The translations under genes were made by a program, and so were the position numbers. The notes below the pieces were generated by a model. That model was not told where the DNA came from, made no database searches, and saw only the letters and a list, made by a program, of their open reading frames with translations. A stretch of DNA of 64,000 nt. It comes from Shigella phage ESh24. Shown here piece after piece: positions 803-57,498 of the stretch; within the stretch, counting starts at the first letter, position 1; each line of letters begins with the position of its first letter. The DNA is taken from sequence record ON528734; one strand, given 5' to 3'.

Positions 803-967
803 ATGAAAACATATAAAGAATTTATCAAAGAAGATATGGTCGCTGGAGATTCAGGTGGTAATCCTGAAAATATCTCTACTGGAACAACATCAGGTGCTGT
901 AGTAAATAAAGGTCCTGAACAGATTCCTAAAAAGAAAAAAGAGGAATCTAAAGAAAAAGAAGAGTAA
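803..967 (+). CDS. hypothetical small Lys/Glu-rich protein (position of T4 61.1)
   Basis: 54 aa, below ORF-track cutoff: MKTYKEFIKEDMVAGDSGGN..KKKKEESKEKEE*; ATG 2 nt after previous stop, ends 3 nt before gene 61. Confidence 0.5.
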   Translation: MKTYKEFIKEDMVAGDSGGNPENISTGTTSGAVVNKGPEQIPKKKKEESKEKEE

Positions 968-969
968 AA

Positions 970-1998: not shown

Positions 1999-2195
1999 AT
2001 TAACCCAACTAAAGCAAATGCTAAATCTACGAATGTATCAAGAGTAACTACTGGAATACTAACGCCATGAGCAATAGCAACTGGCGATAAAACAAAATTC
2101 CAAAGTAAAATTCCTATCATAGCAGAAATAGTAAAAGCTATACGTTTCTTATTACCTTTTATGGCATTAACAAGTGCCATTAATTTTTGTACCAT
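1995..2195 (-). CDS. small two-TM membrane protein on the strand opposite to all flanking early genes
   Basis: 66 aa; strong SD AAGGAGG 4-5 nt before the ATG on the minus strand; two hydrophobic segments; its stop overlaps the gene 61 stop (TTTAAA). Confidence 0.6.
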   Translation of the reverse strand: MVQKLMALVNAIKGNKKRIAFTISAMIGILLWNFVLSPVAIAHGVSIPVVTLDTFVDLAFALVGLI

Positions 2196-2231
2196 ATGTC
2201 CTCCTTTAAATTAATATTTATCATAAATTTG

Positions 2232-2260
2232 TTTACTTTCTCAGCTTGTTATGGTATTAT
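2232..2260 (+). promoter_or_regulatory. T4-type early promoter
   Basis: -35 TTTACT 2232-2237, 17-nt spacer, -10 TATTAT 2255-2260; serves ORF 2286 and dam. Confidence 0.6.
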
Positions 2261-2285
2261 AAAATAAATTGCTGAGGATGATATA

Positions 2286-3625
<1,340 letters not shown>

Positions 3626-3685: not shown

Positions 3686-4204
3686 ATGGCTCACTTTAAT
3701 GAATGTTCACAACTGATCGAAGGCGCTGATAAAGCTCAAAATGAATATTGGGATATTCTCGGTGATGAAAAAGACCCGCTGCAGGTTATGCTTGACATGC
3801 AGAAATCTTTGCAGGTTCGTTTAGCTAAAGATAAACCTGAATATAACCGTCATCCTGATGATTTGGCTACTGCAGGTGAAGTTGTTGATTGGCTGCGTAA
3901 TCAGAAAGATTATATTGACGATGAATTCCGTGAACTTCTGACTTCTCTTGGTGGTATGAGTAATGGTGAAAAAGACGCATCTGCTGTATGGAAACCTTGG
4001 AAGTCGCAGCATGGTGAACGTCGTGAAACTCTGATTACTGATTTGTCTCCACAGGACCAGTTAGAAATCAAATTCGAAATGATTGATATTCTCCATTTTG
4101 TTCTGAACATGTTTCAAGGTCTTGGTCTTACAGCAGAAGAAATCTTTAAACTTTATTATCTGAAAAATGCTGAAAATTTCGCTCGTCAAGACCGAGGTTA
4201 TTAA
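3686..4204 (+). CDS. 56: dCTPase/dUTPase gp56 (MazG-like)
   Basis: 172 aa from ATG 3686 (track TTG 3671 rejected); MAHFNEC..FARQDRGY matches T4 gp56. Confidence 0.9.
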   Translation: MAHFNECSQLIEGADKAQNEYWDILGDEKDPLQVMLDMQKSLQVRLAKDKPEYNRHPDDLATAGEVVDWLRNQKDYIDDEFRELLTSLGGMSNGEKDASAVWKPWKSQHGERRETLITDLSPQDQLEIKFEMIDILHFVLNMFQGLGLTAEEIFKLYYLKNAENFARQDRGY

Positions 4205-4234
4205 CAGCTCGTCTTAAAAGCCGCGAGAATTTAT

Positions 4235-4242
4235 TATAAATA
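4235..4242 (+). promoter_or_regulatory. late promoter
   Basis: Exact TATAAATA 31 nt upstream of soc. Confidence 0.7.
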
Positions 4243-4272
4243 ATCATGTAATTTAAATAAAAGGAGAATTAC

Positions 4273-4518
4273 ATGGCTAGTACTCGCGGTTATGTTAATA
4301 TCAAAACATTTGAGCAGAAATTAGATGGAAATAAGAAAATTGAAGGAAAGGAAATTTCAGTAGCTTTCCCTCTTTATTCTGACGTTCACAAAATTTCTGG
4401 TGCTCATTACCAGACGTTCCCTTCAGAAAAAGCAGCATATACTACTGTATATGAAGAAAATCAGCGTACTGAATGGATTGCTGCAAACGAAGATTTGTGG
4501 AAAGTAACTGGTGGTTAA
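4273..4518 (+). CDS. soc: small outer capsid protein Soc
   Basis: 81 aa MASTRGYVNIKTFEQKLDGNKKIEG..; matches T4 Soc; late promoter upstream. Confidence 0.9.
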   Translation: MASTRGYVNIKTFEQKLDGNKKIEGKEISVAFPLYSDVHKISGAHYQTFPSEKAAYTTVYEENQRTEWIAANEDLWKVTGG

Positions 4519-4525
4519 TAATTCA

Positions 4526-4549
4526 AGGACTCCTTCGGGAGTCCTTTTT
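4526..4549 (+). terminator. UUCG-tetraloop hairpin plus T-run
   Basis: aggactcc-ttcg-ggagtcct then tttt; identical copy at 58465-58488. Confidence 0.7.
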
Positions 4550-39396: not shown

Positions 39397-40046
39397 TTAA
39401 ACTCCGCATGCCTGCTGGTGGTGAAAGATACATTGATGGTAAATCAGTTTATAAATTATACTTAATGATAAAACAACATATGAATGGAAAATATGATGTT
39501 ATTAAGTACAATTGGTGCATGCGGGTGTCTGATGCCGCTTATCAAAAGCGAAGGGATAAGTATTTTTTCCAGAAGTTATCAGAAAAATATAAATTAAAGG
39601 AACTTGCTTTAATCTTTATAAGCAATTTGGTTGCTAACCAAGATGCTTGGATTGGTGACATCTCTGACGCTGATGCACTTGTGTTTTATCGTGAATATAT
39701 CGGACGCTTAAAGCAAATTAAATTTAAGTTTGAAGAAGATATTCGCAACATTTATTATTTTAGTAAAAAAGTTGAAGTTTCTGCTTTTAAAGAAATCTTT
39801 GAATATAATCCAAAGGTTCAATCAAGTTATATTTTTAAACTGCTTCAGTCGAATATAATTTCGTTTGAAACGTTTATCTTGCTTGATTCGTTTTTAAATA
39901 TAATTGATAAACATGATGAACAGACTGATAATTTAGTTTGGAACAATTATTCTATAAAGTTAAAGGCTTATAGAAAAATTTTAAATATTGATTCACAGAA
40001 AGCTAAAAGTGTTTTCATTGAAACTGTGAAATCTTGCAAGTATTAA
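39393..40046 (+). CDS. 59: helicase loader gp59
   Basis: 217 aa MIKLRMPAGGERYIDGKSVYKLYLMIKQHMNGKYD..; matches T4 gp59. Confidence 0.9.
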   Translation: MIKLRMPAGGERYIDGKSVYKLYLMIKQHMNGKYDVIKYNWCMRVSDAAYQKRRDKYFFQKLSEKYKLKELALIFISNLVANQDAWIGDISDADALVFYREYIGRLKQIKFKFEEDIRNIYYFSKKVEVSAFKEIFEYNPKVQSSYIFKLLQSNIISFETFILLDSFLNIIDKHDEQTDNLVWNNYSIKLKAYRKILNIDSQKAKSVFIETVKSCKY

Positions 40047-40047
40047 T

Positions 40048-40071
40048 TGCTTATTATAAATAGATTATAAT
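40048..40071 (+). promoter_or_regulatory. MotA-dependent middle promoter for gene 32
   Basis: MotA box aatTGCTTAt 40048-40053, 12 nt, -10 TATAAT 40066-40071. Confidence 0.55.
40055..40062 (+). promoter_or_regulatory. late promoter for gene 32
   Basis: Exact TATAAATA 84 nt upstream of the gene 32 ATG. Confidence 0.55.
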
Positions 40072-40079
40072 TATCTCAC

Positions 40080-40145
40080 TGACCAGCTATGAGGTCATAC
40101 ATCGTCATAGCACCAACTGTTAATTAAATTAAAAAGGAAATAAAA
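40080..40145 (+). promoter_or_regulatory. gene 32 autoregulatory translational operator (H-type pseudoknot plus unstructured A/U tract)
   Basis: S1 tgacc 40080-40084 pairs ggtca 40093-40097; S2 gctatga 40086-40092 pairs tcatagc 40105-40111; then ttaattaaattaaaaaggaaataaaaATG. Confidence 0.8.
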
Positions 40146-41054
40146 ATGTTTAAACGTAAATCTACTGCTGAACTCGCTGCACAAATGGCTAAACTGGCTG
40201 GAAATAAAGGTGGTTTTTCTTCTGAAGATAAAGGCGAGTGGAAACTGAAACTCGATAATGCGGGTAATGGTCAAGCAGTAATTCGTTTTCTTCCGTCTAA
40301 AAATGATGAACAAGCACCATTCGCAATTCTTGTAAATCACGGTTTCAAGAAAAATGGTAAATGGTATATTGAAAACTGTTCATCTACCCACGGTGATTAC
40401 GATTCTTGTCCAGTATGTCAGTATATCAGTAAAAATGATCTGTACAACACTGACAATAAAGAGTACAGTCTTGTTAAACGTAAAACTTCTTACTGGGCTA
40501 ACATTCTTGTTGTAAAAGACCCAGCTGCTCCAGAAAACGAAGGTAAAGTATTTAAATATCGTTTCGGTAAGAAAATCTGGGATAAAATCAACGCAATGAT
40601 TGCAGTTGATGTTGAAATGGGTGAAACTCCGGTTGATGTAACTTGTCCGTGGGAAGGTGCTAACTTTGTACTGAAAGTTAAACAAGTTTCTGGATTTAGT
40701 AACTACGACGAATCTAAATTCCTGAATCAATCTGCGATTCCAAACATTGATGATGAATCTTTCCAGAAAGAACTGTTCGAACAAATGGTTGACCTTTCTG
40801 AAATGACTTCTAAAGATAAATTCAAATCGTTTGAAGAACTAAGCACTAAGTTCAGTCAAGTTATGGGAACTGCTGCTATGGGTGGTGCCGCAGCAACTGC
40901 CGCTAAGAAAGCTGATAAAGTTGCTGATGATTTGGATGCATTCAATGTTGATGACTTCAAAACAAAAACTGAAGATGATTTTATGAGCTCAAGCTCTGGC
41001 AGTTCATCTAGTGCTGATGACACGGACCTGGATGACCTTTTGAATGACCTTTAA
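40146..41054 (+). CDS. 32: ssDNA-binding protein gp32
   Basis: 302 aa; Zn site [14 protein letters not shown]; acidic C-terminus [21 protein letters not shown]. Confidence 0.97.
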
Positions 41055-41086
41055 TAGATTATATTACTAATTAATTGGGGACCCTA

Positions 41087-41110
41087 GAGGTCCCCTTTTT
41101 ATTTCAAAAA
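41087..41110 (+). terminator. hairpin plus T-run after gene 32
   Basis: ggggacc-ctaga-ggtcccc then ttttt. Confidence 0.75.
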
Positions 41111-41126
41111 TTTTTTCACAAAACGG

Positions 41127-41155
41127 TTTACATCCTTGTCCTTCCATGGTACTAT
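41127..41155 (+). promoter_or_regulatory. T4-type early promoter with UP-like element
   Basis: caaaaattttttcacaaaacgg then -35 TTTACA 41127-41132, 17 nt, -10 TACTAT 41150-41155. Confidence 0.7.
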
Positions 41156-41198
41156 ACAACTATCGGCAATACTGCTGATGATTAAAGAGGAAAATAAT

Positions 41199-41429
41199 AT
41201 GGCTAAAGTTGATATTGACATTGTTGATTTTGAATATATTGAAGAGATTATTCGTAATCGTTATCCTGAACTTAGTATCACAAGTATTCACGATGATCCC
41301 AATTATTGCAATTTTTCTATTGTCATTGAAGGTCCTCTTGAAGACCTCACCCGCTTTATGGCTAATGAATATTGTGATGGTATGGATTCTGAAGACGCAG
41401 AATTTTACATGGGATTGATTGAACAATAA
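41199..41429 (+). CDS. hypothetical acidic early protein
   Basis: 76 aa from ATG 41199 with SD AGAGGAAAA (track start 41136 reads through the promoter). Confidence 0.55.
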
Positions 41430-41436
41430 TTATCAA

Positions 41437-41453
41437 GGGGCTATTACAGCCCC
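41437..41453 (+). other. RNA hairpin
   Basis: ggggct-attac-agcccc between two early ORFs. Confidence 0.45.
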
Positions 41454-41473
41454 GTTAAAATGAGGAAAACGCA

Positions 41474-41839
41474 ATGTATATCGGTAAAAAGTATGAACTT
41501 GTTCCAAGACTTATTGATACATTTATTAATTATCGCCCACGTTCTAATTCAGCAATAGTTAAAATTATTCAAGAAAATGGCGGATGGTTTGAAGTTAAAG
41601 AAGCTTTCTTTGTTGATGGATTTAGAGTAATAAAACACATTGAATGCGCAAATGGAAAGCATTTTTACTTTAACGTTTGTGAAGACGAATTTCATTGTTT
41701 TCGTGAGTATAAAGAACTGACTTCTGAAGAAGATGAAGTCAAAGACAAGGTTTCTGGCGTAACAAAAATTCACTGCATTGTAGACGAAAACAATGTAGAT
41801 GAAATCATTGAACTTTTGCGAAAAACTTTCAAAAAGTAG
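41474..41839 (+). CDS. hypothetical early protein, IGKxY / EDEFxxF family
   Basis: 121 aa MYIGKKYELVPRL..VCEDEFHCFREYKE; SD GAGGAAAA. Confidence 0.6.
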   Translation: MYIGKKYELVPRLIDTFINYRPRSNSAIVKIIQENGGWFEVKEAFFVDGFRVIKHIECANGKHFYFNVCEDEFHCFREYKELTSEEDEVKDKVSGVTKIHCIVDENNVDEIIELLRKTFKK

Positions 41840-41868
41840 TTTACAACAGGGTAGTAGTGTGATACTAT
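41840..41868 (+). promoter_or_regulatory. T4-type early promoter
   Basis: -35 TTTACA 41840-41845, 17 nt, -10 TACTAT 41863-41868. Confidence 0.65.
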
Positions 41869-41893
41869 TACCCTATCAACTAAGGAGAATAAA

Positions 41894-42136
41894 ATGAGAT
41901 TACAACGCCAGAGCATCAAAGATTCGGAAGTTAGAGGTAAATGGTATTTTAATATCATCGGTAAAGATTCTGAACTCGTTGAAAAAGCTGAACATCTTTT
42001 ACGTGATATGGGATGGGAAGATGAATGTGATGGATGCCCTCTTTATGAGGATGGAGAAAGCGCAGGATTCTGGATTTACCATTCTGACGTCGAGCAGTTT
42101 AAAGCTGATTGGAAAATTGTGAAAAAGTCTGTTTAA
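41894..42136 (+). CDS. hypothetical early protein
   Basis: 80 aa; SD AAGGAGAA. Confidence 0.55.
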   Translation: MRLQRQSIKDSEVRGKWYFNIIGKDSELVEKAEHLLRDMGWEDECDGCPLYEDGESAGFWIYHSDVEQFKADWKIVKKSV

Positions 42137-42146
42137 GGAAAATAAT

Positions 42147-42389
42147 ATGATTTTTGTATTTGAATTTATGAATGATGAATTCGATTATGCAATTTTTAAC
42201 GCATTGCATAATCCTGATTTAAATGAATTTAATGAAATGTTTTCTGACGCTTTGAGCATGTCAGAAGAATACTGTGGAGAATGTCAACGTGTTTGTGTGA
42301 CAGTTTTTGAAAACAAAGAAAAGACTTACGAAGAATTATTCTTTGATGCTAATAAAGCCACTGAATGGTTTATTGAAAGGGGGTTTTGA
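42147..42389 (+). CDS. hypothetical acidic early protein
   Basis: 80 aa; SD AAGGAAAA. Confidence 0.55.
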   Translation: MIFVFEFMNDEFDYAIFNALHNPDLNEFNEMFSDALSMSEEYCGECQRVCVTVFENKEKTYEELFFDANKATEWFIERGF

Positions 42390-42977
<588 letters not shown>

Positions 42978-42996
42978 AATAACGTGTGGCGGAAAT

Positions 42997-43344
42997 ATGA
43001 ATTTTAATTATTACCCTATTCTATTAGAAAAAGATGATAAGCAGCCAAAGTGGCAGGGTCCTCAGTTTATTAAAGGCGTCTATCAATTAGTAGTTCCTAA
43101 AGACAAGATTTATAGCAGTTGTTTCACTGAATCCGCCTGCAGTATTTTCGGTAATAGTTCTCCGTATTGGAATTTTGACATAAAGCTGGATAGAAATATC
43201 GATATTTGGTTGAAAGCTATGGATATTGGTAATATCACGTTTGATGAGAATAATTATCATATTATTGGTCGCTTTTCCAAACGCGGTAAAGAATTGTATT
43301 TCACACCTGAAATTGAAAGAAAATTTGATGCTAAACCGTATTGA
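42997..43344 (+). CDS. hypothetical protein inserted between frd and td
   Basis: 115-aa ORF with ATG and weak SD; no recognisable motif. Confidence 0.55.
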   Translation: MNFNYYPILLEKDDKQPKWQGPQFIKGVYQLVVPKDKIYSSCFTESACSIFGNSSPYWNFDIKLDRNIDIWLKAMDIGNITFDENNYHIIGRFSKRGKELYFTPEIERKFDAKPY

Positions 43345-43387
43345 TTATTTAGCTTCATAAAATGTATTATAATATATAAGGTACTAA

Positions 43388-43936
43388 ATGAAACAATACC
43401 AAGATTTAATTAAAGACATTTTTGAAAATGGCTATGAAACCGATGACCGAACAGGCACAGGAACAATTGCTTTGTTTGGTACTAAATTACGCTGGGATTT
43501 AACTAAAGGTTTTCCTGCAGTAACAACTAAGAAGCTCGCTTGGAACGCATGTATTGCTGAGCTTCTATGGTTTATTTCCGGTTCTACCAATGTTAATGAT
43601 TTACGTCTTCGTACTCATGGTAGTCTTATTCAAGGTAAAACTATCTGGGATGACAATTATGAAAACCAAGCTAAAGACCTAGGATATCATAGTGGTGAAC
43701 TTGGTCCAATTTATGGAAAACAGTGGCGTGATTTCGGTGGTGTGGATCAATTAGTTGAAACTATTGATCGTATTAAAAAATTACCAACTGATCGACGTCA
43801 AATCGTTTCAGCATGGAATCCAGCTGAAATCAATCAAATGGCATTACCGCCCTGTCATATGTTCTATCAGTTTAATGTGCGTAATGGCTATTTAGATTTG
43901 CAGTGGTATCAACGATCAGTAGATGTTTTCTTGGGT
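43388..43936 (+). CDS. td: thymidylate synthase, exon 1
   Basis: 183 codons ending ..RSVDVFLG; catalytic MALPPCHMFYQF; ORF-track stop 43937-43939 is the first intron triplet. Confidence 0.95.
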
Positions 43937-44039
43937 TAATTGAGGCCTGAGTATAAGGTGACTTATACTTGTAATCTATCTAAACGGGGAACCTCTCTAG
44001 TAGACAATCCCGTGCTAAATTGTAGGACTGCCCTTTAAT

Positions 44040-44067
44040 AAATACTTCTATATTTAAAGAGGTATTT
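44040..44067 (+). promoter_or_regulatory. hairpin sequestering the I-TevI SD, with a late-promoter-like TAATAAATA at its 5' edge
   Basis: aaatacttct 44040-44049 pairs agaggtattt 44058-44067 (one G-U pair); SD GAGG lies in the 3' arm; taataaata at 44036-44044. Confidence 0.55.
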
Positions 44068-44805
44068 ATGAAAAGCGGAATTTATCAGATTAAAAATACT
44101 TTAAACAATAAAGTATATGTAGGAAGTGCTAAAGATTTTAAAAAGAGATGGAAGAGGCATTTTAAAGATTTAGAAAAAGGATGCCATTCTTCTATAAAAC
44201 TTCAGAGGTCTTTTAACAAACACGGTAATGTGTTTGAATGTTCTATTTTGGAAGAAATTCCATATGAGAAAGATTTGATTATTGAACGAGAAAATTTTTG
44301 GATTAAAGAGCTTAATTCTAAAATTAATGGATACAATATTGCTGATGCAACGTTTGGTGATACATGTTCTACACATCCATTAAAAGAAGAAATTATTAAG
44401 AAACGTTCTGAAACTGTTAAAGCTAAGATGCTTAAACTTGGACCTGATGGTCGGAAAGCTCTTTACAGTAAACCCGGAAGTAAAAACGGGCGTTGGAATC
44501 CAGAAACCCATAAGTTTTGTAAGTGCGGTGTTCGCATACAAACTTCTGCTTATACTTGTAGTAAATGCAGAAATCGTTCAGGTGAAAATAATTCATTCTT
44601 TAATCATAAGCATTCAGACATAACTAAATCTAAAATATCAGAAAAGATGAAAGGTAAAAAGCCTAGTAATATTAAAAAGATTTCATGTGATGGGGTTATT
44701 TTTGATTGTGCAGCAGATGCAGCTAGACATTTTAAAATTTCGTCTGGATTAGTTACTTATCGTGTAAAATCTGATAAATGGAATTGGTTCTACATAAATG
44801 CCTAA
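44068..44805 (+). CDS. I-TevI: GIY-YIG homing endonuclease I-TevI
   Basis: 245 aa MKSGIYQIKNTLNNKVYVGSAKDF.. (GIY-YIG), Zn finger CKCGVRIQTSAYTCSKC, C-terminal HTH. Confidence 0.97.
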   Translation: MKSGIYQIKNTLNNKVYVGSAKDFKKRWKRHFKDLEKGCHSSIKLQRSFNKHGNVFECSILEEIPYEKDLIIERENFWIKELNSKINGYNIADATFGDTCSTHPLKEEIIKKRSETVKAKMLKLGPDGRKALYSKPGSKNGRWNPETHKFCKCGVRIQTSAYTCSKCRNRSGENNSFFNHKHSDITKSKISEKMKGKKPSNIKKISCDGVIFDCAADAARHFKISSGLVTYRVKSDKWNWFYINA

Positions 44806-44952
44806 CGACTATCCCTTTGGGGAGTAGGGTCAAGTGACTCGAAACGATAGACAACTTGCTTTAACAAGTTGGAGATATAGTCTGATCTGCATGGTGACAT
44901 GTAGCTGGATATAATTCCGGGGTAAGATTAACGACCTTATCTGAACATAATG

Positions 44953-45264
44953 CTACCATTTAATATTGCATCATATGCTGCGTTAGTTCATATTGTAGCT
45001 AAGATGTGTAATCTTATTCCTGGAGATTTGATATTTTCTGGCGGTAATACTCATATCTATATGAATCATGTGGAACAATGTAAAGAAATTTTACGTCGTG
45101 AACCTATGGATTTATGCGAATTGCAATTAAAATTTCCAGATGAATTTGATGAATGGGACACAGAATCGCAGGTATTTTGGTTGAGTCAATTCGCAAAGCC
45201 GCATAATTTTGTTCTTAACAACTATGAATCACACCCTTCTATTAAAGGAAAGATGGCGGTGTAA
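44953..45264 (+). CDS. td: thymidylate synthase, exon 2
   Basis: 103 codons [25 protein letters not shown]; the track ATG 44950 is the last intron triplet. Confidence 0.95.
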
Positions 45265-45284
45265 TTTTATTATTGCGAGGATAT

Positions 45285-45548
45285 ATGATTTTACGATTTA
45301 AAGATACTTCTGGTGTCGTTCTTTTTACACTTCCTAATCCAAGCGAGTTAGAAGTTCCAGGACCAAATCAGCCTATTATCATTTATGGCAAAAAATATTA
45401 TACTCATAAAATGACTCGTGAGTATTTTGATAATAAAATTTCTACAGTTAAAACTTCTTCAGATTGTTACTATGATATTACTGTTTTAACGGAAAAACAA
45501 TATGACGAATTATCACCGCGCGGGCCGTCTATGCCAGGTAGTGAATAA
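45285..45548 (+). CDS. hypothetical early protein (position of T4 nrdA.2)
   Basis: 87 aa from ATG 45285 with SD GAGGA (track TTG 45273 rejected). Confidence 0.55.
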
Positions 45549-45828
45549 ATATAAATCCGACTTTGATGTTAATATTCACCGTGGTACATTTTGGGGAAAT
45601 TACGTCGGTAAAGATGCTGGCAGCCGGGAGGCTGCCATTGAATTATTCAAAAAAGATTTTATACGTCGAATTAAATCCGGAGAAATAACTAAAGCACATT
45701 TAGAGCCTTTACGTGGAATGAGGCTAGGATGCACATGTAAACCAAAGCCGTGTCATGGTGATATAATAGCTCATATAGTTAACCGATTGTTTAAAGACGA
45801 TTTTCAAGTTGAGGACTTATGCAATTAA
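45502..45828 (+). CDS. hypothetical protein, DUF4326-like pattern (position of T4 nrdA.1)
   Basis: 108 aa; [35 protein letters not shown]; overlaps previous ORF by 47 nt and nrdA by 10 nt. Confidence 0.55.
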
Positions 45829-48083
45829 TTAATGTTATCAAAAGTAGTGGTGTTTCTCAGAGCTTTGACCCGCAAAAAATTATTAAAGTTTTATCTTGGG
45901 CAGCTGAAGGAACATCAGTCGATCCTTATGAATTATATGAAAATATTAAATCATATCTCCGTGATGGAATGACAACTGATGATATTCAGACTATTGTCAT
46001 TAAGGCCGCTGCGAATTCTATTTCAGTTGAAGAGCCTGATTATCAATACGTAGCCGCGCGCTGTTTAATGTTTGCTCTTCGTAAGCATGTTTATGGGCAG
46101 TATGAACCACGTTCATTTATTGACCATATTTCTTACTGTGTAAATGAAGGTAAATATGACCCTGAATTATTGTCAAAATATTCAGCAGAAGAAATTACAT
46201 TTTTAGAATCAAAAATTAAGCACGAGCGGGATATGGAATTTACTTATTCCGGGGCGATGCAATTAAAAGAAAAATATCTCGTTAAAGATAAAACTACTGG
46301 TCAAATTTATGAAACTCCACAGTTTGCATTTATGACTATTGGAATGGCACTGCATCAAGATGAACCTGTTGATAGATTAAAACATGTTATTCGTTTTTAT
46401 GAAGCAGTATCTACTCGACAGATTTCATTGCCAACTCCTATTATGGCTGGTTGTCGTACTCCGACTCGACAGTTTAGTTCATGCGTTGTTATTGAGGCAG
46501 GTGATTCATTGAAGTCTATCAATAAGGCTTCCGCTTCAATTGTTGAATATATCTCTAAACGCGCTGGAATTGGTATTAACGTTGGTATGATTCGTGCCGA
46601 AGGTTCTAAGATTGGCATGGGTGAAGTACGCCATACCGGTGTTATTCCTTTTTGGAAACATTTTCAGACTGCTGTTAAATCATGTTCACAGGGTGGAATT
46701 CGTGGCGGCGCTGCTACTGCTTATTATCCTATTTGGCATTTGGAAGTTGAAAATCTTCTCGTTTTGAAAAATAACAAAGGTGTAGAAGAAAACCGCATTC
46801 GTCATATGGATTATGGTGTTCAGCTGAATGATTTGATGATGGAACGTTTTGGAAAGAACGATTACATTACTTTGTTCAGTCCGCATGAAATGGGTGGCGA
46901 GCTTTATTATTCTTATTTTAAAGATCAAGACCGTTTCCGTGAATTATACGAAGCTGCAGAAAAAGACCCTAATATTCGTAAAAAGCGTATTAAAGCCCGT
47001 GAACTGTTTGAATTGCTTATGACTGAACGCTCAGGAACAGCAAGGATTTATGTGCAGTTCATTGATAATACGAATAACTATACTCCGTTTATTCGTGAAA
47101 AGGCACCTATTCGCCAGAGTAACTTGTGCTGTGAAATTGCTATTCCAACAAATGATGTGAATAGTCCTGATGCTGAAATTGGCTTGTGTACTCTCTCTGC
47201 ATTCGTACTAGATAATTTTGACTGGCAAGACCAAGATAAAATTAATGAATTAGCAGAAGTTCAAGTTCGTGCTCTTGATAATCTTTTGGATTACCAAGGA
47301 TATCCAGTTCCTGAAGCAGAAAAAGCTAAAAAGCGTCGTAACCTCGGTGTAGGTGTTACTAACTATGCAGCTTGGCTGGCAAGTAACTTTGCTTCTTATG
47401 AAGATGCTAACGATTTAACACATGAACTATTTGAGAGATTACAGTATGGACTCATTAAAGCATCCATTAAGCTCGCCAAAGAAAAAGGACCTTGCGAATA
47501 TTATTCAGACACTCGTTGGTCTCGAGGCGAATTACCTATCGACTGGTACAATAAAAAGATTGACCAAATCGCAGCTCCAAAATACGTTTGTGACTGGTCG
47601 TCGCTGCGGGAAGACCTTAAGCTCTTTGGCATCCGTAATAGCACATTATCAGCACTTATGCCATGTGAGTCATCTTCCCAAGTTTCTAACAGTACAAACG
47701 GTATCGAGCCTCCACGTGGACCAGTCTCTGTTAAAGAATCAAAAGAGGGCTCCTTTAATCAAGTCGTGCCCAATATTGAACATAACATAGACCTATATGA
47801 TTATACATGGAAATTAGCTAAGAAAGGTAATAAACCTTATCTTACGCAGGTAGCTATTATGCTGAAATGGGTATGTCAATCAGCTTCGGCGAATACATAT
47901 TATGACCCACAGATTTTTCCAAAAGGAAAGGTTCCAATGTCAATAATGATTGATGACCTTTTGTATTTTTGGTATTTTGGCGGAAAAAATTTCTATTATC
48001 ATAATACCCGTGATGGTTCTGGTACTGATGATTATGAAATAGAAACTCCTAAAGCTGAAGATTGTTCATCCTGTAAATTATGA
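45819..48083 (+). CDS. nrdA: aerobic ribonucleotide reductase large subunit
   Basis: 754 aa; class Ia motifs (SNLCCEI), C-terminal redox pair CSSCKL; matches T4 NrdA. Confidence 0.97.
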   Translation: MQLINVIKSSGVSQSFDPQKIIKVLSWAAEGTSVDPYELYENIKSYLRDGMTTDDIQTIVIKAAANSISVEEPDYQYVAARCLMFALRKHVYGQYEPRSFIDHISYCVNEGKYDPELLSKYSAEEITFLESKIKHERDMEFTYSGAMQLKEKYLVKDKTTGQIYETPQFAFMTIGMALHQDEPVDRLKHVIRFYEAVSTRQISLPTPIMAGCRTPTRQFSSCVVIEAGDSLKSINKASASIVEYISKRAGIGINVGMIRAEGSKIGMGEVRHTGVIPFWKHFQTAVKSCSQGGIRGGAATAYYPIWHLEVENLLVLKNNKGVEENRIRHMDYGVQLNDLMMERFGKNDYITLFSPHEMGGELYYSYFKDQDRFRELYEAAEKDPNIRKKRIKARELFELLMTERSGTARIYVQFIDNTNNYTPFIREKAPIRQSNLCCEIAIPTNDVNSPDAEIGLCTLSAFVLDNFDWQDQDKINELAEVQVRALDNLLDYQGYPVPEAEKAKKRRNLGVGVTNYAAWLASNFASYEDANDLTHELFERLQYGLIKASIKLAKEKGPCEYYSDTRWSRGELPIDWYNKKIDQIAAPKYVCDWSSLREDLKLFGIRNSTLSALMPCESSSQVSNSTNGIEPPRGPVSVKESKEGSFNQVVPNIEHNIDLYDYTWKLAKKGNKPYLTQVAIMLKWVCQSASANTYYDPQIFPKGKVPMSIMIDDLLYFWYFGGKNFYYHNTRDGSGTDDYEIETPKAEDCSSCKL

Positions 48084-48134
48084 TATAATTTGACTCATGG
48101 ACGAGTCACTATCTATTAACTAAGTGGAAAATTT

Positions 48135-48810
48135 ATGAGCACAGTTTTTAATACAAATCCAGTTGATGTTTTAAAAGAACCTATGTTTTTTGGTTCAGGT
48201 CTTGGTATTGCGCGTTATGATATTCAGCGGCATCGAGTATTTGAAGAACTTACTGAGAAGTCTTTATCATTTTTCTGGCGTCCTGAAGAAGTAAACTTAA
48301 TGATGGATGCTGCGCAATTTAATAAGCTTCCTCAGTATCAGCAAAATATTTTTACTAATAACCTGAAGTATCAATCACTTTTGGATAGCATTCAGGGTCG
48401 TGCGCCATCTGCTGTACTTATGTCATTAATTTCAGACCCGAGTCTTGATACATGGGTTGCTACATGGACTTTTAGTGAAACTATTCACAGTCGTTCATAT
48501 ACACATATCATGCGAAATCTTTATACTGATCCATCGAAGGTATTTGATGAGATTGTATTAGATGAAGCTATTATGAAACGCGCTGAATCCATTGGACGTT
48601 ATTATGATGATGTTCTGATTAAAACCCGTGAATGGGAAAATGCTAAAGAATTTGTAGAACTAGCTAAAGAATCTCCTGATGCCGACTTTCGTTTAAACAG
48701 GGCTATTAAACAAGAAGCCGAAGCTAAACGCGCTTTAATGAAATCTCTTTACCTCTGTTTACACGTTATTAATGCCTTAGAAGCTATTCGTTTTTATGTA
48801 TCTTTTGCGT
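48135..48810 (+). CDS. nrdB: ribonucleotide reductase small subunit, exon 1
   Basis: 225 codons plus 1 nt, ..ALEAIRFYVSFA then T of a split Cys codon; ORF-track stop 48810-48812 spans the splice site. Confidence 0.9.
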
Positions 48811-49895
48811 AAAATGCGCCTTTAAACGGTAACGTTTATCGAAAACTCCTTTAATTGCTGGAAAGTCCTTTATAGGAAAACTAGCAGCCAAGGTTTTGCT
48901 TGCACCTTTAATTAGTATAATATGATTATACTTTTAAGAGGATGCACAATTGAACTATAGAAAAATTTGGATAGATGCTAACGGACCTATACCTAAAGAT
49001 TCTGATGGAAGAACATACGAAATCCATCATAAAGACGGTAACCGTGAAAATAATGATTTAGATAATTTGATGTGCCTTTCTATACAGGAACATTATGATA
49101 TACATTTAGCTCAAAAAGATTACCAGGCTTGTCATGCTATAAAGCTTAGAATGAAATATTCTCCTGAAGAAATTTCTGAATTAGCTTCTAAAGCCGCAAA
49201 ATCTAGAGAAATCCAGATTTTTAATATCCCTGAAGTACGAGCTAAAAATATTGCCTCTATTAAATCTAAGATAGAAAATGGTACATTTCATCTTTTAGAC
49301 GGTGAAATACAGCGTAAATCTAATTTAAATAGAGTTGCATTAGGTATACATAATTTTCAACAAGCTGAGCATATTGCAAAAGTTAAAGAACGCAATATTG
49401 CAGCTATAAAAGAAGGTACTCATGTATTTTGCGGTGGTAAAATGCAGTCAGAAACTCAATCAAAACGGGTAAATGACGGTTCACATCATTTCTTGTCAGA
49501 AGACCATAAGAAAAGAACATCAGCAAAAACATTAGAAATGGTTAAGAACGGGACCCATCCTGCACAAAAAGAAATCACATGTGATTTCTGCGGTCACATT
49601 GGTAAAGGTCCTGGATTTTATCTAAAACATAATGACAGATGTAAATTAAATCCAAATAGAATTCAATTGAATTGTCCATATTGTGATAAGAAAGATTTAT
49701 CACCATCAACATATAAACGATGGCACGGCGACAATTGCAAAGCAAGGTTCAACGACTAGTCTTCGGACGTAGGGTCAAGCGACTCGAAATGGGGAGAATC
49801 CCTCTGGGATTGTGATATAGTCTGGTCTGCATAGTAATATGTAGCAGTTCATAAGAGAACGGGTTGAGAATTAGCGAGCTCAATCGAACATAACG
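48811..49895 (+). mobile_element. nrdB group I intron, long form (1085 nt) carrying full-length I-TevIII
   Basis: Splicing 48810 to 49896 gives [32 protein letters not shown] (R2 iron-ligand region); 3' core tagggtcaagcgactcgaaa and gatatagtctggtctgcat parallels the td intron; ends ..cgaacataacg. Confidence 0.85.
48950..49759 (+). CDS. I-TevIII: HNH homing endonuclease I-TevIII, full length
   Basis: 269 aa; TTG start with SD AAGAGGA 7 nt upstream; HNH EIHHKDGNRENNDLDNLMCLSIQEHYDIH; C-terminal Zn fingers CDFCGH..HNDRC and CPYCDK..HGDNC. Confidence 0.85.
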   Translation: MNYRKIWIDANGPIPKDSDGRTYEIHHKDGNRENNDLDNLMCLSIQEHYDIHLAQKDYQACHAIKLRMKYSPEEISELASKAAKSREIQIFNIPEVRAKNIASIKSKIENGTFHLLDGEIQRKSNLNRVALGIHNFQQAEHIAKVKERNIAAIKEGTHVFCGGKMQSETQSKRVNDGSHHFLSEDHKKRTSAKTLEMVKNGTHPAQKEITCDFCGHIGKGPGFYLKHNDRCKLNPNRIQLNCPYCDKKDLSPSTYKRWHGDNCKARFND

Positions 49896-50398
49896 GTACC
49901 TTTAACTTCCATAAGAACATGGAAATCATGGAAGGTAATGCCAAGATTATGAAGTTCATTGCACGCGATGAACAGCTTCACCTTAAAGGCACCCAATATA
50001 TTATTCGTCAGCTTCAATCCGGTACTGATGGTGATGAATGGGTTAAAATTGCCAAAGAGTGTGAACAAGAAGCAGTTGATATTTTCATGGAAGTTAACCG
50101 CCAAGAAAAAGATTGGGCAGTTCATTTATTTAAAGATGGCGATGTTCCTGGATTAAATACAAATAGCATGTGGAGCTTTATTGATTACTTAACTGTATCT
50201 CGTATGAAACAGTGTGGTCTTCCATGCCCGATTACCGATGCTCCGGTTAAACATCCATATCCTTGGATTCGTGAATACCTTAATTCTGATAATGTTCAAT
50301 CCGCGCCGCAAGAAGTAGAACTGTCATCTTATCTTGTTGCACAGATTGATAATGATGTTGATGATAAAGTTATGATGAGTTTTAAAAAATACTTTTAA
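49896..50398 (+). CDS. nrdB: ribonucleotide reductase small subunit, exon 2
   Basis: Starts with GT completing the Cys codon, then [33 protein letters not shown]..; exons total 392 aa. Confidence 0.9.
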
Positions 50399-50402
50399 GG
50401 AG

Positions 50403-50422
50403 TGGGCCGCAAGGCCCATTTT
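50403..50422 (+). terminator. GNRA hairpin plus T-run after nrdB
   Basis: tgggcc-gcaa-ggccca then tttt. Confidence 0.7.
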
Positions 50423-50425
50423 ATT

Positions 50426-52013
<1,588 letters not shown>

Positions 52014-52017
52014 GTTG

Positions 52018-52046
52018 TTTACAAGTCCCTCATGCTGTGTTATAGT
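52018..52046 (+). promoter_or_regulatory. T4-type early promoter
   Basis: -35 TTTACA 52018-52023, 17 nt, -10 TATAGT 52041-52046. Confidence 0.6.
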
Positions 52047-52077
52047 AGTCTTACTGACATAACATGAGGACTTTATG

Positions 52078-52581
52078 ATGGATTTGCAGCTTATTACTAC
52101 TGAAATGGTCGTTGAAGCATACGGTGATACTACAGATGGGATTTCTGTATTTAAAGGAAATCGTCGAGTTGGATATATCACCGATCTTAAGAAAGATTTA
52201 GCTAAGCAAGTCAAGCGGAAAACGACCATTAAAGAATATCGAAATCGTCGTCTTGAGCAAGCCCGTGATATGCTTCCTGATGCGGTTGAGGAGATGAAAG
52301 TCTTTTTAGAAAATCAACTCGCTAAGTATGAGTGCGAAGTATTCATTAATCAGACTCAACCTAATGTTCATATCAATAGCTGCAAATGCTATATCATCGT
52401 TAATCCTTTGACGGGAAAACATCGTCTTGGAATTAGTAATCCAAATCGTAGCGCATCGGATATGGCAGAAGATGTTGAGGCATGCTTTAAAATTTCTAAA
52501 TCTCCGGCTGAACACCATATTTTAATTAACGGTCTTTCTCAAGACGATATTGTAGAGGTTATTAAAACTTTATGCAATTAA
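52078..52581 (+). CDS. alc: Alc, inhibitor of host (dC-DNA) transcription
   Basis: 167 aa from second ATG; MDLQLITTEMVVEAYGDTTDGISVFKGNRR.. matches T4 Alc. Confidence 0.9.
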   Translation: MDLQLITTEMVVEAYGDTTDGISVFKGNRRVGYITDLKKDLAKQVKRKTTIKEYRNRRLEQARDMLPDAVEEMKVFLENQLAKYECEVFINQTQPNVHINSCKCYIIVNPLTGKHRLGISNPNRSASDMAEDVEACFKISKSPAEHHILINGLSQDDIVEVIKTLCN

Positions 52582-52925
52582 GTAATACGACAGCAGGTTT
52601 GCTATTAATTGTAATAGCATTGGGCGGAACATCTATTATTTTAAAAAATAAGGTAGAAAGATTAGAAACATCAGTTACTGAAATTACAAAAACAGCCAAT
52701 GAAAACGCTTTAGCATTAAATAATTTGCGAATTCAGTATAATTATATTGATGCGATGAATAATAAAAATCGTGAGGCAATTGCTGCTATTGAGCGTGAAA
52801 ATGAAAAACTGCGCAAAGACGCAAAGAAGGCGGATGTGGTGGCTCATAAGCCAGGATTGGTTGAAAAACAAATCAACAATTCCTTCAACAAGTTCGCAGA
52901 AGACATCCAGGACCTTTCTAAATGA
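52572..52925 (+). CDS. pseT.3: i-spanin (Rz-like inner-membrane spanin subunit)
   Basis: 117 aa; N-terminal TM GLLLIVIALGGTSIIL then coiled-coil periplasmic domain; followed by a lipoprotein ORF. Confidence 0.75.
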   Translation: MQLSNTTAGLLLIVIALGGTSIILKNKVERLETSVTEITKTANENALALNNLRIQYNYIDAMNNKNREAIAAIERENEKLRKDAKKADVVAHKPGLVEKQINNSFNKFAEDIQDLSK

Positions 52926-53221
52926 TTAAACTATCGGCAGTAATATTATCTATTGGTCTTCTAGTTGGTTGTTCTACAAAGCCTCTAGAAGTAAAGAAAG
53001 AAACAGTTCATCCTAATTGGCCTGTACAAATAAAGTCATATGATGAAGCTAAACTATCTTGGCAAGTTAAAGTTATTGATGGTAAAGCTTGGGTCGGTAT
53101 GCCATTTGAAGATTCCCAGGAATTTCGTATTTGGCTTAATGATGTAAAACGATATGTACATGACCAGAAAACTATGATATGTTATTATCGTCAAGAGCTA
53201 AAAGAGGATAAATGTAAATGA
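52922..53221 (+). CDS. pseT.2: o-spanin (Rz1-like outer-membrane lipoprotein)
   Basis: 99 aa; lipobox LLVGC after signal MIKLSAVILSIG; ATGA overlap with the i-spanin. Confidence 0.75.
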   Translation: MIKLSAVILSIGLLVGCSTKPLEVKKETVHPNWPVQIKSYDEAKLSWQVKVIDGKAWVGMPFEDSQEFRIWLNDVKRYVHDQKTMICYYRQELKEDKCK

Positions 53222-53444
53222 TTTCATGGCATCAATTTGAACATCTCAAAGGATTGATTTATGAATCTGAGATGGCCGCAATGATTTATGGACGCCAGAT
53301 TCAACGATTAGAATCTTTACCTCCAACTAATGATGTTTTATTAGCTCAATCTCGGGTTAATCTTAAAAATGAATATCAAAATAAGTGGGGTAAAGCATCT
53401 AAAGACCTGCATGATTATATTCAATCATTGGTTGAGAAAAATAA

Positions 53445-53448
<4 letters not shown>
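53218..53448 (+). CDS. hypothetical protein
   Basis: 76 aa; ATGA overlap. Confidence 0.55.
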
Positions 53449-54669
<1,221 letters not shown>

Positions 54670-54670
<1 letters not shown>

Positions 54671-54867
54671 TGGCTTTGCACCATGAAACTTGGGCTATTG
54701 TTATTGTAAATAGCGGTTTAGTTGGTACTAGTAATGGGCAATTTTGTGTATTTACTAGTGAAAATAGAGCATGGGAGGAATGTCTTAAATTAAGAGAAAA
54801 GAATCCTGATGTTGAACTAGTAGTAAAGAAAACTAAACTGCCTTTACCATGGAAAACTTATGAATAA
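54670..54867 (+). CDS. hypothetical protein
   Basis: 65 aa from ATG 54670 (TAATG with pseT stop); track start 54640 is inside pseT. Confidence 0.5.
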
Positions 54868-55060
54868 CCTAGAAAAGATTTATCATCTTTGTGATAAAAT
54901 TGAAAAAGAAAAGAAATATCTATTTTGTTTATGGCCTATTGTTGATGGAAGAGTAGGCTTAGATGTTCTTGATTATGAAACAGAAGACAGAGTAGATGGT
55001 TCAACTTTTGATAACGCTTTAGATGTTATTGATTGGCTTGAAGAAAATTATGTGAGGTAA
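54860..55060 (+). CDS. hypothetical acidic protein
   Basis: 66 aa, overlaps previous ORF by 8 nt. Confidence 0.5.
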   Translation: MNNLEKIYHLCDKIEKEKKYLFCLWPIVDGRVGLDVLDYETEDRVDGSTFDNALDVIDWLEENYVR

Positions 55061-55062
55061 AT

Positions 55063-55338
55063 ATGTTTCCGACTTACTCTAAAATCGTAGAAGTAGTGTT
55101 TAGCCAAATTATCGCTAATAATATGTTTGAAAAACTTGATAATGCAGCTGAGCTTCGAATCCATGCTCAAGTGACTCATGTATTGAATACTTTGCTTCCA
55201 GACCAGGTGGATTCTGTTGCCATCACGTTGTATCCAGGTTCCGCGCATATCATTGTTGTATTCGGTCTTGATGCTGAGCTAGTCATCAAAGGCGATATTC
55301 GTTTTGAATCGCAGACAGCAGAATTCAAAGCAATTTAA
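55063..55338 (+). CDS. hypothetical protein
   Basis: 91 aa; ATG 2 nt after previous stop. Confidence 0.55.
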   Translation: MFPTYSKIVEVVFSQIIANNMFEKLDNAAELRIHAQVTHVLNTLLPDQVDSVAITLYPGSAHIIVVFGLDAELVIKGDIRFESQTAEFKAI

Positions 55339-55341
55339 TAG

Positions 55342-55370
55342 TTTACTTTACGGTAGAGTTGTGATATTAT
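55342..55370 (+). promoter_or_regulatory. T4-type early promoter
   Basis: -35 TTTACT 55342-55347, 17 nt, -10 TATTAT 55365-55370. Confidence 0.65.
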
Positions 55371-55399
55371 AGCTCTACCAAACAAATGAGGAAAACAAA

Positions 55400-55639
55400 A
55401 TGCTGCTAAGTGAAAAACCGATTACTGTTAAAGAATTCCAAGAAAAAGTTAAGTTATTTGCACAGGAATTGGTAAATAAGGTTTCTGAACGATTTCCTGA
55501 AACATCGGTTCGTGTTATTACCGAAACTCCTCGTTCAGTATTAGTAATTGTGAATCCAGGTGATGGCGATCAAATATCGCATCTTAAACTGGATTTTGAT
55601 GGATTAGTTGAAGCACAAAGGGTGTATGGCGTACTATGA
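55400..55639 (+). CDS. hypothetical protein
   Basis: 79 aa; SD GAGGAAAA. Confidence 0.55.
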   Translation: MLLSEKPITVKEFQEKVKLFAQELVNKVSERFPETSVRVITETPRSVLVIVNPGDGDQISHLKLDFDGLVEAQRVYGVL

Positions 55640-55974
55640 TGAATTTAACTGATATAATTGATAATTGTCTTGAAAATGATACTGGCGATCATAGAGCGCT
55701 TGATTCTGAAACAGCACAGTTCATTAGAATAACTTTAATGAATGATACTCTGGTGAATAGTATTCATCCTTCTGTGTATGATGCTATTATTGTGACGAAG
55801 TATCCAGTTGAGCTTCACAAAAAGATGGTTGGCGCAATTTTTATTGATAAGAAAAACCGCTTTAAAGACGGGCAGAATATAATTAGTTCTATTATTAAAA
55901 GTATAACTAAACTTCGTCACGAAATTTATCGTGTTGAAACTGCTAAATCTGCTTATCTGGTGATTATGAAATGA
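55636..55974 (+). CDS. hypothetical protein
   Basis: 112 aa; ATGA overlaps on both sides. Confidence 0.55.
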   Translation: MMNLTDIIDNCLENDTGDHRALDSETAQFIRITLMNDTLVNSIHPSVYDAIIVTKYPVELHKKMVGAIFIDKKNRFKDGQNIISSIIKSITKLRHEIYRVETAKSAYLVIMK

Positions 55975-56552
55975 AAGCGAGTACAGTACTTCAAATTGCA
56001 TATTTAGTATCACAAGAATCAAAATGTTGCTCCTGGAAGGTAGGAGCAGTAATTGAAAAGAATGGACGTATTATTTCTACTGGGTATAATGGTTCGCCTG
56101 CCGGTGGTGTGAACTGCTGTGATTATGCTGCCGAGCAAGGTTGGTTGTTGAATAAACCTAAACATACTATCATTCAAGGTCATAAGCCTGAATGCGTATC
56201 ATTTGGTTCAACTGATCGCTTTGTCTTGGCGAAAGAACACCGTAGCGCTCACTCTGAATGGTCGTCTAAAAATGAAATTCATGCTGAACTAAATGCAATT
56301 TTGTTTGCTGCACGAAATGGTTCTTCTATTGAAGGTGCTACTATGTATGTAACACTTTCTCCTTGTCCAGATTGTGCAAAAGCGATAGCTCAATCTGGTA
56401 TTAAAAAGCTGGTTTATTGCGAAACATACGATAAAAATAAACCTGGCTGGGATGATATTCTGCGAAATGCAGGTATTGAAGTGTTTAATGTTCCTAAGAA
56501 AAACTTGAATAAGTTAAACTGGGAAAATATCAACGAATTCTGTGGTGAATAA
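55971..56552 (+). CDS. cd: dCMP deaminase
   Basis: 193 aa; Zn motifs HAELNA and PCPDCAKAI. Confidence 0.95.
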   Translation: MKASTVLQIAYLVSQESKCCSWKVGAVIEKNGRIISTGYNGSPAGGVNCCDYAAEQGWLLNKPKHTIIQGHKPECVSFGSTDRFVLAKEHRSAHSEWSSKNEIHAELNAILFAARNGSSIEGATMYVTLSPCPDCAKAIAQSGIKKLVYCETYDKNKPGWDDILRNAGIEVFNVPKKNLNKLNWENINEFCGE

Positions 56553-56789
56553 TGAAATTTCGTTTGGTAAAGCTCACAGCAATTAGTTCTTATTCTAATG
56601 AGAACATCTCGTTTGCTGTAGAGTATAAGAAATATTTTTTTCTCTAAATGGAAACAGTATTATAAAACTGATTGGACTAGTATTGATAGACCATATAGTT
56701 GGAAATCTGATTTAGAAAAATGCCAAAAATTACTTTCCACTCTTAAAGAACGTGGAACAACTCATATTAAAACTGTAATAGGTAAATAA
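56552..56789 (+). pseudogene. small ORF downstream of cd (position of T4 31.2), apparent +1 frameshift at a T7 run
   Basis: ATG 56552 (TAATG with cd) gives MKFRLVKLTAISSYSNENISFAVEYKKYFFL* (stop 56645-56647); +1 frame continues FSKWKQYYKTDWTSIDRPYSWKSDLEKCQKLLSTLKERGTTHIKTVIGK* to 56789; removing one T of 56635-56641 gives one 78-aa ORF. Confidence 0.6.
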
Positions 56790-57098
56790 ATGAAACTGAC
56801 AACTGAGCAGAAAGTAGCAATTCGCGAAATTTTGAAAACTAAATTGTCCATGGGTGTTTCAAACGTAGTTTTTGAAAAGTCTGATGGTACTATTCGTACT
56901 ATGAAAGGTACTCGTGATGCAGACTTTATGCCAACCATGCAAACCGGTAAGTTGACTGAATCTACTCGGAAAGAATCTACGGATATGATTCCAGTATTTG
57001 ATGTTGAACTTGGTGCATGGCGAGGTTTTTCTATTGACAAATTGATTTCCGTTAATGGTATGAAAGTTGAGCATTTACTCCAATTTATTGGTAAATAA
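56790..57098 (+). CDS. hypothetical protein (position of T4 31.1)
   Basis: 102 aa; ATG 1 nt after the upstream stop. Confidence 0.6.
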   Translation: MKLTTEQKVAIREILKTKLSMGVSNVVFEKSDGTIRTMKGTRDADFMPTMQTGKLTESTRKESTDMIPVFDVELGAWRGFSIDKLISVNGMKVEHLLQFIGK

Positions 57099-57154
57099 AT
57101 GCTTTAAGAATTATTTGTTATTATTAACTCATCTGTTAACAAAAAGGAAAAACG

Positions 57155-57490
57155 ATGTCTGAAGTACAACAGCTACCAATTCGTGCTGTCGGTGAATATG
57201 TTATTTTAGTTTCTGAACCTGCACAGGCTGGTGATGAAGAAGTTACAGAATCAGGACTTATTATCGGTAAACGTGTTCAAGGTGAAGTTCCTGAACTGTG
57301 TGTAGTTCACTCTGTTGGTCCTGATGTTCCTGAAGGTTTCTGCGAAGTTGGTGATTTGACTTCTCTTCCAGTTGGTCAAATTCGAAATGTTCCGCATCCT
57401 TTTGTAGCTCTGGGTCTTAAGCAGCCAAAAGAAATTAAACAAAAATTTGTTACCTGTCATTATAAAGCTATTCCGTGTCTTTATAAGTGA
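57155..57490 (+). CDS. 31: co-chaperonin gp31 (GroES analogue for capsid folding)
   Basis: 111 aa [40 protein letters not shown]..; matches T4 gp31. Confidence 0.95.
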
Positions 57491-57498
57491 TATAAATA
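57491..57498 (+). promoter_or_regulatory. late promoter upstream of rIII
   Basis: Exact TATAAATA directly after the gene 31 stop, 140 nt before rIII. Confidence 0.55.

Follow-up and report, generated by a model that had tools for sequence, protein, structure and literature searches.

The locus considered here raises two related questions: whether the intron in the nrdB gene of Shigella phage ESh24 [GenBank accession number ON528734] is the long form known from phage RB3, with an intact I-TevIII homing endonuclease, and whether that endonuclease gene retains the signals for its expression. The stretch of DNA analysed, referred to as the window, is 64,000 nt long. An interpretation drawn from the window without database searches (the sequence-only reading) had described positions 48811–49895 as the long wild-type form of the intron. 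We are highly confident that the element is the long T-even nrdB group I intron with an intact I-TevIII in the P6a loop, in a U5-type variant that lacks the late promoter.

The window reads as T4-like (Tequatrovirus-type) phage DNA, in which the genes td, nrdA, nrdB, denA and rnlA are found in this order, all on the + strand. The segments of the nrdA-nrdB region are as follows.

45819–48083, + strand: nrdA, uninterrupted, encoding the ribonucleotide reductase (RNR) large subunit of 754 aa (ORF list; annotated as nrdA in RB3 and T4)
48084–48134, + strand: nrdA-nrdB spacer of 51 nt, without mobE or hef (sequence, ORF list)
48135–48810, + strand: nrdB exon 1, with a final U whose partner in P1 is a G within the internal guide sequence
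48811–49895, + strand: nrdB group I intron, long form, 1085 nt, with a terminal G (alignment to the RB3, T4 and U5 introns)
49896–50398, + strand: nrdB exon 2 (sequence and spliced translation)

The unspliced nrdB frame runs into a stop at 48812 and is picked up again downstream, and removal of the intron restores the uninterrupted host frame. Exon 1 closes with T at 48810, the intron opens with AAAATGCGCC at 48811 and has G 49895 as its last base, and exon 2 begins with GTACC at 49896. Joining 48135–48810 to 49896–50398 gives a NrdB of 392 aa, in which a TGT Cys codon is split as T / GT. Pfam Ribonuc_red_sm matches residues 33–335 of the spliced product, across the junction (E = 3.7e-37), and the score of 128.7 bits against a cut-off of 33.6 assigns it to the small subunits of class Ia RNR. 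It is identical to RB3 NrdB at 388 of 392 residues. The P1 pairing is formed by GCGU of the exon (48807–48810) with GCGC of the intron (48816–48819), including a U48810-G48816 pair. The splice at 48810/49896, the 1085-nt intron, the split Cys codon and the 392-aa R2 protein had all been given by the sequence-only reading and proved exact in the sequence, the joined translation and the Pfam match. For annotation, 48810/49896 is the junction at which nrdB is to be joined, and the intron ORF with the TTG start, described below, is to be named I-TevIII.

The ribozyme core lies at the two ends of the intron. Its components are listed here, with helix labels taken from RNA folds and the group I consensus.

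48811–48899, + strand: ribozyme core, 5′ half, identical to RB3
48816–48819, + strand: predicted guide sequence GCGC
48824–48837, + strand: predicted helix P2
48846–48849, + strand: predicted 5′ strand of P3
48856–48886, + strand: predicted helices P4/P5
48888–48899, + strand: predicted 5′ strands of P6 and P6a
49737–49895, + strand: ribozyme core, 3′ half (RF00028 alignment, MFE fold)

The 3′ half contains, in order, the 3′ strands of P6a and P6, J6/7, P7, P7.1, P7.2, the 3′ strand of P3, P8, J8/7, P9, P9.1, P9.2 and the terminal G, and P6, J6/7 and P7 overlap the final I-TevIII codons and the stop. Folding recovers P2, P4/P5, P6a, P7, P7.2, P8, P9, P9.1 and P9.2, the names being assigned by group I analogy. 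At the gathering threshold, Rfam RF00028 was not detected in 40000–54000 or in the whole 64,000-nt window. Under an E-value threshold it gave 34 bits (E = 1.2e-6; gathering score 50), in a match that has only the 3′ half aligned correctly, the two halves of the core being separated by the ORF; the match does align the diagnostic segments AAGGUUCAACGACUA and GAUAUAGUCU. The score falls below gathering because an ORF insertion of ∼840 nt in P6a separates the core halves, and as the proven nrdB intron of T4 scores about the same in this test (35.7 bits), the low value reflects a limitation of the model. Both introns, that of nrdB and that of td, are false negatives of a standard scan at the gathering threshold, because endonuclease ORFs in P6 split their cores.

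Outside the ORF and a 6-nt loop deletion, there are no mismatches between the window and the RB3 intron. P9 reads CUGCAUG/CAUGCAG in T4 and CUGCAUA/UAUGUAG in the window; the two changes, G:C to A:U and G:C to G:U, preserve the pairing. By its sequence identity to the self-splicing introns of RB3 and T4, the segment is the T-even nrdB group I intron.

In a megablast search with 48700–50000, RB3 was the best match (99.2% over 1.3 kb), with nrdB and I-TevIII annotated there. Alignment to the RB3 and T4 introns, which the sequence-only reading had proposed, shows the window intron to be the RB3 intron minus 6 nt plus one substitution, whereas T4 is missing 491 nt. The lengths given in the sequence-only reading agree with the records: about 0.6 kb with a truncated ORF for T4 (598 nt, ORF annotated as defective) and about 1.09 kb with a 269-aa I-TevIII for RB3 (1091 nt, 269 aa). 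RB3 and the window have in common the insertion site, the ribozyme core, the 269-aa TTG ORF with its HNH motif and zinc fingers, and a hairpin at the ribosome binding site (RBS). They differ in that the window is without AATATA and the TATAAATA late promoter, making the intron 6 nt shorter; in a single G-to-T substitution, which gives Y23 in the window and D23 in RB3, Y23 being the commoner residue in databases; and in mobE, found between nrdA and nrdB in RB3 and absent from the window.

In phage U5 [AY262133] the intron has the 6-nt deletion and the Y23 codon of the window, and otherwise the two introns differ at 4 positions. However, I-TevIII of U5 is frameshifted after the HNH motif and hef is found upstream of nrdB, while in the window the ORF is intact and hef is missing. 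The alternative I-TevIII hairpin of U5 was noted by Edgell et al. in 2010 (PMC2988022). In T4 the intron, its insertion site, the hairpin and the middle promoter are those of the window, and the 3′ core is nearly identical, but T4 has lost 491 nt between GAAGAACATA and GAAGACCATA and with them the HNH domain; T4 keeps TATAAATA.

A second intron in the same window, in td, offers a further comparison.

43937–44952: td group I intron, 1016 nt; spliced Td of 286 aa
44068–44805: I-TevI ORF, full-length 245-aa GIY-YIG, with a late-promoter-like AATAAATA at 44037

The td intron with I-TevI resembles the nrdB intron in being of group IA, in having an endonuclease ORF looped out from P6, and in its regulation by hairpin and promoter (PMC2988022). 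The parallel between the 3′ cores of the two introns that had been remarked on earlier holds, and within the window they align well (GTAGGGTCAAG.GACTCGAAA ... GATATAGTCTG.TCTGCAT). In contrast, I-TevI is a monomeric GIY-YIG enzyme in a different host gene, and its late-promoter-like box is still present in the window. Two long ORF-bearing introns, td and nrdB, are found within 6 kb in this phage.

The coding features within the nrdB intron are the following.

48936–48942, + strand: Shine-Dalgarno sequence AAGAGGA, 7 nt 5′ of the TTG start
48950–49759, + strand: I-TevIII ORF, TTG start, 269 aa (ORF list, Pfam, phrog_12324, identity to e11/2)
48959–49093, + strand: HNH region, I-TevIII residues 4–48 (motif, Pfam)
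49580–49642, + strand: zinc finger 1, residues 211–231 (CX2CX12-13HX3C)
49673–49738, + strand: zinc finger 2, residues 242–263 (CX2CX12-13HX3C)

A 269-aa ORF starting at TTG 48950, with AAGAGGA 7 nt upstream, an HNH motif and two C-terminal zinc fingers, is what the sequence-only reading had described, and the ORF list, Pfam and the motifs reproduce it exactly. The ORF product matches Pfam HNH_3 (E = 6e-13), and the match to phrog_12324 (‘intron-like DNA endonuclease’, 269 positions) covers residues 1–269 of 269 (E = 1.9e-193). It is 100% identical to the protein of phage e11/2 and shares 268 of 269 residues with the RB3 enzyme. Mutagenesis of the RB3 enzyme has identified residues of the HNH motif that are important for cleavage and of the zinc fingers that are important for binding (Robbins et al. 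2007, PMC1865063). Every tested residue found important in that study is kept in the window protein, and the HNH residues H26, H27, N39 and H48 are all present. On this comparison, I-TevIII of the window is very probably catalytically competent. The D23Y change beside the HNH histidines was considered as a damaging change and dropped, Y23 being found in e11/2, phiD1, at least 26 further records and many assemblies. A PDB sequence search found no solved relative of I-TevIII. The linker between the HNH region and the zinc fingers (residues 74–114; 49169–49291) gives a marginal match to Pfam FlgM, an anti-sigma-28 factor (26.2 bits; cut-off 25), in a charged helical stretch and probably by chance. 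Identical I-TevIII proteins in public contigs have this weak hit precomputed as well.

Among phage records, 692 match the nrdB segment and 126 include the intron 5′ region, about 84 of these having the long form. In tblastn searches, 87 records match at least 80% of I-TevIII and at least 28 have e11/2-level identity, RB3 and sibling phages being more distant by one residue. The exact protein occurs in 294 blocks of a public assembly collection. Judged by these matches, the long form is not peculiar to RB3, and the element is already known and widespread. The intron is ∼99.8% identical to those of RB3 and U5, while for nrdB exon 1 the identity is 94.5% with RB3 and 85.8% with U5, and the exons match RB3 without a break over the 49 nt preceding the intron and the 97 nt following it. 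An intron that is far better conserved than exon 1 and has identical flanks is what spread by homing with co-conversion is expected to leave behind.

The interval between nrdA and nrdB varies among phages and is either empty or occupied by mobE, hef or a gene for a D12-class methyltransferase. That mobE is absent from the window and the gap only 51 nt had been observed before and is correct: the nrdA stop is at 48083, the nrdB ATG at 48135, and the spacer is free of ORFs. The same 51-nt spacer is found in e11/2, and contigs L008, L010, L012 and L017 are also empty between nrdA and nrdB. A mobE-less junction is common. At the mobE/hef position, vB_Eco_BGP (locus 902–1645) has a MethyltransfD12 (Dam-like) gene. 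In e11/2 (locus 1–3128), L009 and fPS-2, nrdA itself is split by an inserted HNH ‘MobE’-like ORF.

Expression of the endonuclease depends on the short region between the 5′ core and the ORF, where the following features were located.

48894–48921, + strand: predicted MotA-dependent middle promoter, with MotA-like TTTTGCTTGCA, a 12-bp spacer and TATAAT at 48916–48921
48894–48926, + strand: homing-site-like putative operator, identical to the exon 1/exon 2 junction at 24 of 33 positions
48902–48945, + strand: RBS-sequestering hairpin, arms 48902–48921 and 48925–48945, loop AUG (RNA folds)
48918–48919, + strand: site of the 6-nt deletion, AATATA of RB3 and T4 being absent (alignments)

In T4, the three intron endonucleases are each served by a separate middle and/or late promoter within the intron. 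Read-through transcripts form a stable hairpin that sequesters the Shine-Dalgarno sequence, and the promoter is positioned such that its own transcripts cannot form this hairpin (PMC2988022). The description of the window intron as a long wild-type form is right in that it is long and has a full-length I-TevIII, but the U5-type deletion of 6 nt removes the TATAAATA late promoter. The hairpin loop is 3 nt in the window and 9 nt in RB3 and T4. The stem and the predicted energy of −17.9 kcal/mol are the same with either loop, and AAGAGGA is buried. The box lost with the deletion matches the T4 late-promoter consensus and is present in the 9-nt loop of RB3, T4 and every other non-deleted copy examined (14 loci). 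Upstream of the I-TevIII ORF, the window intron contains no octamer with one mismatch or fewer to this box, and none lies on the + strand in 40055–57491, whereas RB3 has a perfect one. I-TevIII of the window is hence without a late promoter of its own, a regulatory feature that lies outside the definition of the protein family. As the hairpin stem is unchanged and the late box gone, read-through mRNA should stay untranslatable and late starts internal to the hairpin should cease.

What is retained is the predicted middle promoter. The geometry of TTTTGCTTGCA, 12 bp and TATAAT agrees with the published middle-promoter consensus (PMC2988021), and the identical sequence in fPS-2 is annotated as ‘predicted middle promoter’. 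Transcription from it is predicted to start at ∼48928, inside the 3′ arm of the hairpin, so that middle transcripts would leave the RBS free. To judge from these predictions, this promoter could be the only possible source of translatable I-TevIII mRNA in the window. The nrdB-intron middle promoter is reportedly functional in T4 (Gott et al. 1988). The case for a working middle promoter is made up of this work, the general statement of a review (PMC2988022) and a predicted annotation. The homing-site-like operator overlaps the middle promoter, and the 6-nt deletion is at the 3′ edge of the operator. A homing-site-like sequence that probably overlaps the promoter has been put forward as a putative operator for autorepression (PMC2988022).

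Following the RB3 and T4 literature, the intron RNA would self-splice from the nrdB pre-mRNA and so restore the 392-aa RNR small subunit. An I-TevIII dimer, as in RB3, would bind intron-less nrdB across the insertion site via two zinc fingers, and repair of the double-strand break, with an intron-bearing genome as template, would transfer the intron together with adjoining exon sequence to the recipient. In the long nrdB transcript the hairpin would bury the Shine-Dalgarno sequence and block translation of the endonuclease, only transcripts starting within the hairpin being translatable; in the window variant, these could originate only at the predicted middle promoter that is still present, if it works. 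Expression of I-TevIII, and hence autonomous homing, may be reduced or shifted to earlier in infection. Site-specific double-strand cleavage of intron-less nrdB and homing of the intron have been published for RB3 alone; in RB3, the dimeric state of I-TevIII, dimeric cleavage, the cut sites and the mobility of the intron are established, with homing of 4.3% per recipient compared with <0.1% for the T4 intron (PMC1865063). From its sequence, the earlier description of the window intron as presumably mobile is plausible.

The 6-nt deletion is common to phage U5 and about 10 other records. In every other deletion carrier found, the I-TevIII ORF is dead, by a 2-nt frameshift at window positions 49105–49106 in U5 and by deletions of ∼490 nt in Lv5cm and FL18. 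In the three deletion carriers examined (U5, Lv5cm and FL18), hef directly precedes nrdB. An intact ORF together with the 6-nt deletion was found in the window alone, from which both hef and mobE are absent. A 281-nt query covering the deletion site and the HNH region, run against the phage collection, retrieved U5 as the only other record with the deletion and a long ORF, which is the frameshifted one, and exact-pattern scans of IMG/VR and JGI metagenomes yielded no further copy with the deletion and an intact ORF. None of 10 contigs with the exact I-TevIII protein has the deletion, and all 10 keep TATAAATA.

Three other accounts of the locus can be weighed against this evidence. The 6-nt difference might have arisen during sequencing or assembly, as an error within an AT-rich repeat of a phage that truly has the RB3-type promoter (TATAATATAAATATG). 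The deletion does sit in an imperfect tandem repeat, AATATA AATATG, where slippage occurs easily, in vivo and during sequencing alike; however, the identical deletion is present in U5, FL18, Lv5cm, F26, LH2, FL23, FL44, FL12 and G8, and its presence in independently sequenced phages marks it as a real, circulating allele, which makes an error very unlikely. Translation from a start other than TTG 48950, giving a different I-TevIII protein, is if anything even less probable. TTG is a rare start codon, and a review loosely describes the three intron endonucleases as all starting at AUG (PMC2988022), but the next in-frame ATG is codon 41, beyond the catalytic H26, H27 and N39, while the ATG at 48943, directly adjoining the Shine-Dalgarno sequence, is in another frame that meets a stop after 3 codons. 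TTG is also the annotated start in both RB3 records [X59078 (Eddy & Gold; CDS 191–1000) and KM606994], and numbering from it places H26, H27, N39, H48, C211, C214, C242 and C245 on the published mutated residues (PMC1865063).

On the third account I-TevIII is intact but effectively silent, since without the late promoter its only messages would be those with the RBS buried in the hairpin, and the intron, no longer autonomously mobile, is at an early stage of endonuclease decay. This account deserves more weight but is still doubtful. In its favour, the sole TATAAATA is deleted while the hairpin keeps its full predicted stability, the deletion is missing from all 10 of the exact-protein contigs, and the other carriers found are all degenerate, those beyond U5, Lv5cm and FL18 also by ∼490-nt deletions. 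Carriers of the deletion may belong to a lineage without continuing selection on I-TevIII. As a tentative sequence of events, which we regard as possible though not probable, the late promoter would have been lost as a first step with the ORF left intact, as in the window, and the other carriers would then have lost the ORF, the three examined relying on Hef. Against silence, the MotA box and TATAAT are untouched and the predicted start at ∼48928 would free the RBS; the ORF has no damaging change and encodes the common allele of the protein; and the decayed carriers are related, with hef in all three of those examined, and do not represent independent events. Because the deletion carriers are related to one another, the association between promoter loss and ORF decay is only suggestive. 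The pattern is compatible with promoter loss before ORF decay, and is also compatible with an ORF that decays after a nearby endonuclease has taken over mobilisation of the intron in trans, the role of mobE for the T4 nrdB intron (PMC2790892). If decay has indeed begun, regulatory loss would precede coding loss, and the window phage would be a natural test allele.

Publications already cover the intron and I-TevIII, how both work and are regulated, and the hairpin variant of the U5 type, and the discovery value here is small. The one addition is the late-promoter-less variant with an intact ORF, a combination not found elsewhere in the collections searched. With the late promoter deleted, the ORF intact and neither mobE nor hef next to it, this natural allele lends itself to separating late- from middle-promoter dependence of I-TevIII expression and homing.

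The short intron of the T4 type is bounded by a pair of imperfect direct repeats of 10 bp, 491 nt apart, both of which are present in the window.

49008–49017, + strand: GAAGAACATA, first repeat
49499–49508, + strand: GAAGACCATA, second repeat

As both repeats are intact, the same 491-nt deletion could occur in the window. At the junction repeat of the short introns, the variant with A is kept in T4, and that with C in Lv5cm and FL18, which suggests that independent deletions or differing crossover points lie behind the two. The FL18 (Mosigvirus) intron, at locus ∼3944–4535, looks like a mosaic, with the 6-nt deletion of the U5 type in the 5′ part and, in the 3′ core, T4-specific substitutions in the P8 loop and P9 together with a missing A near the 3′ end.
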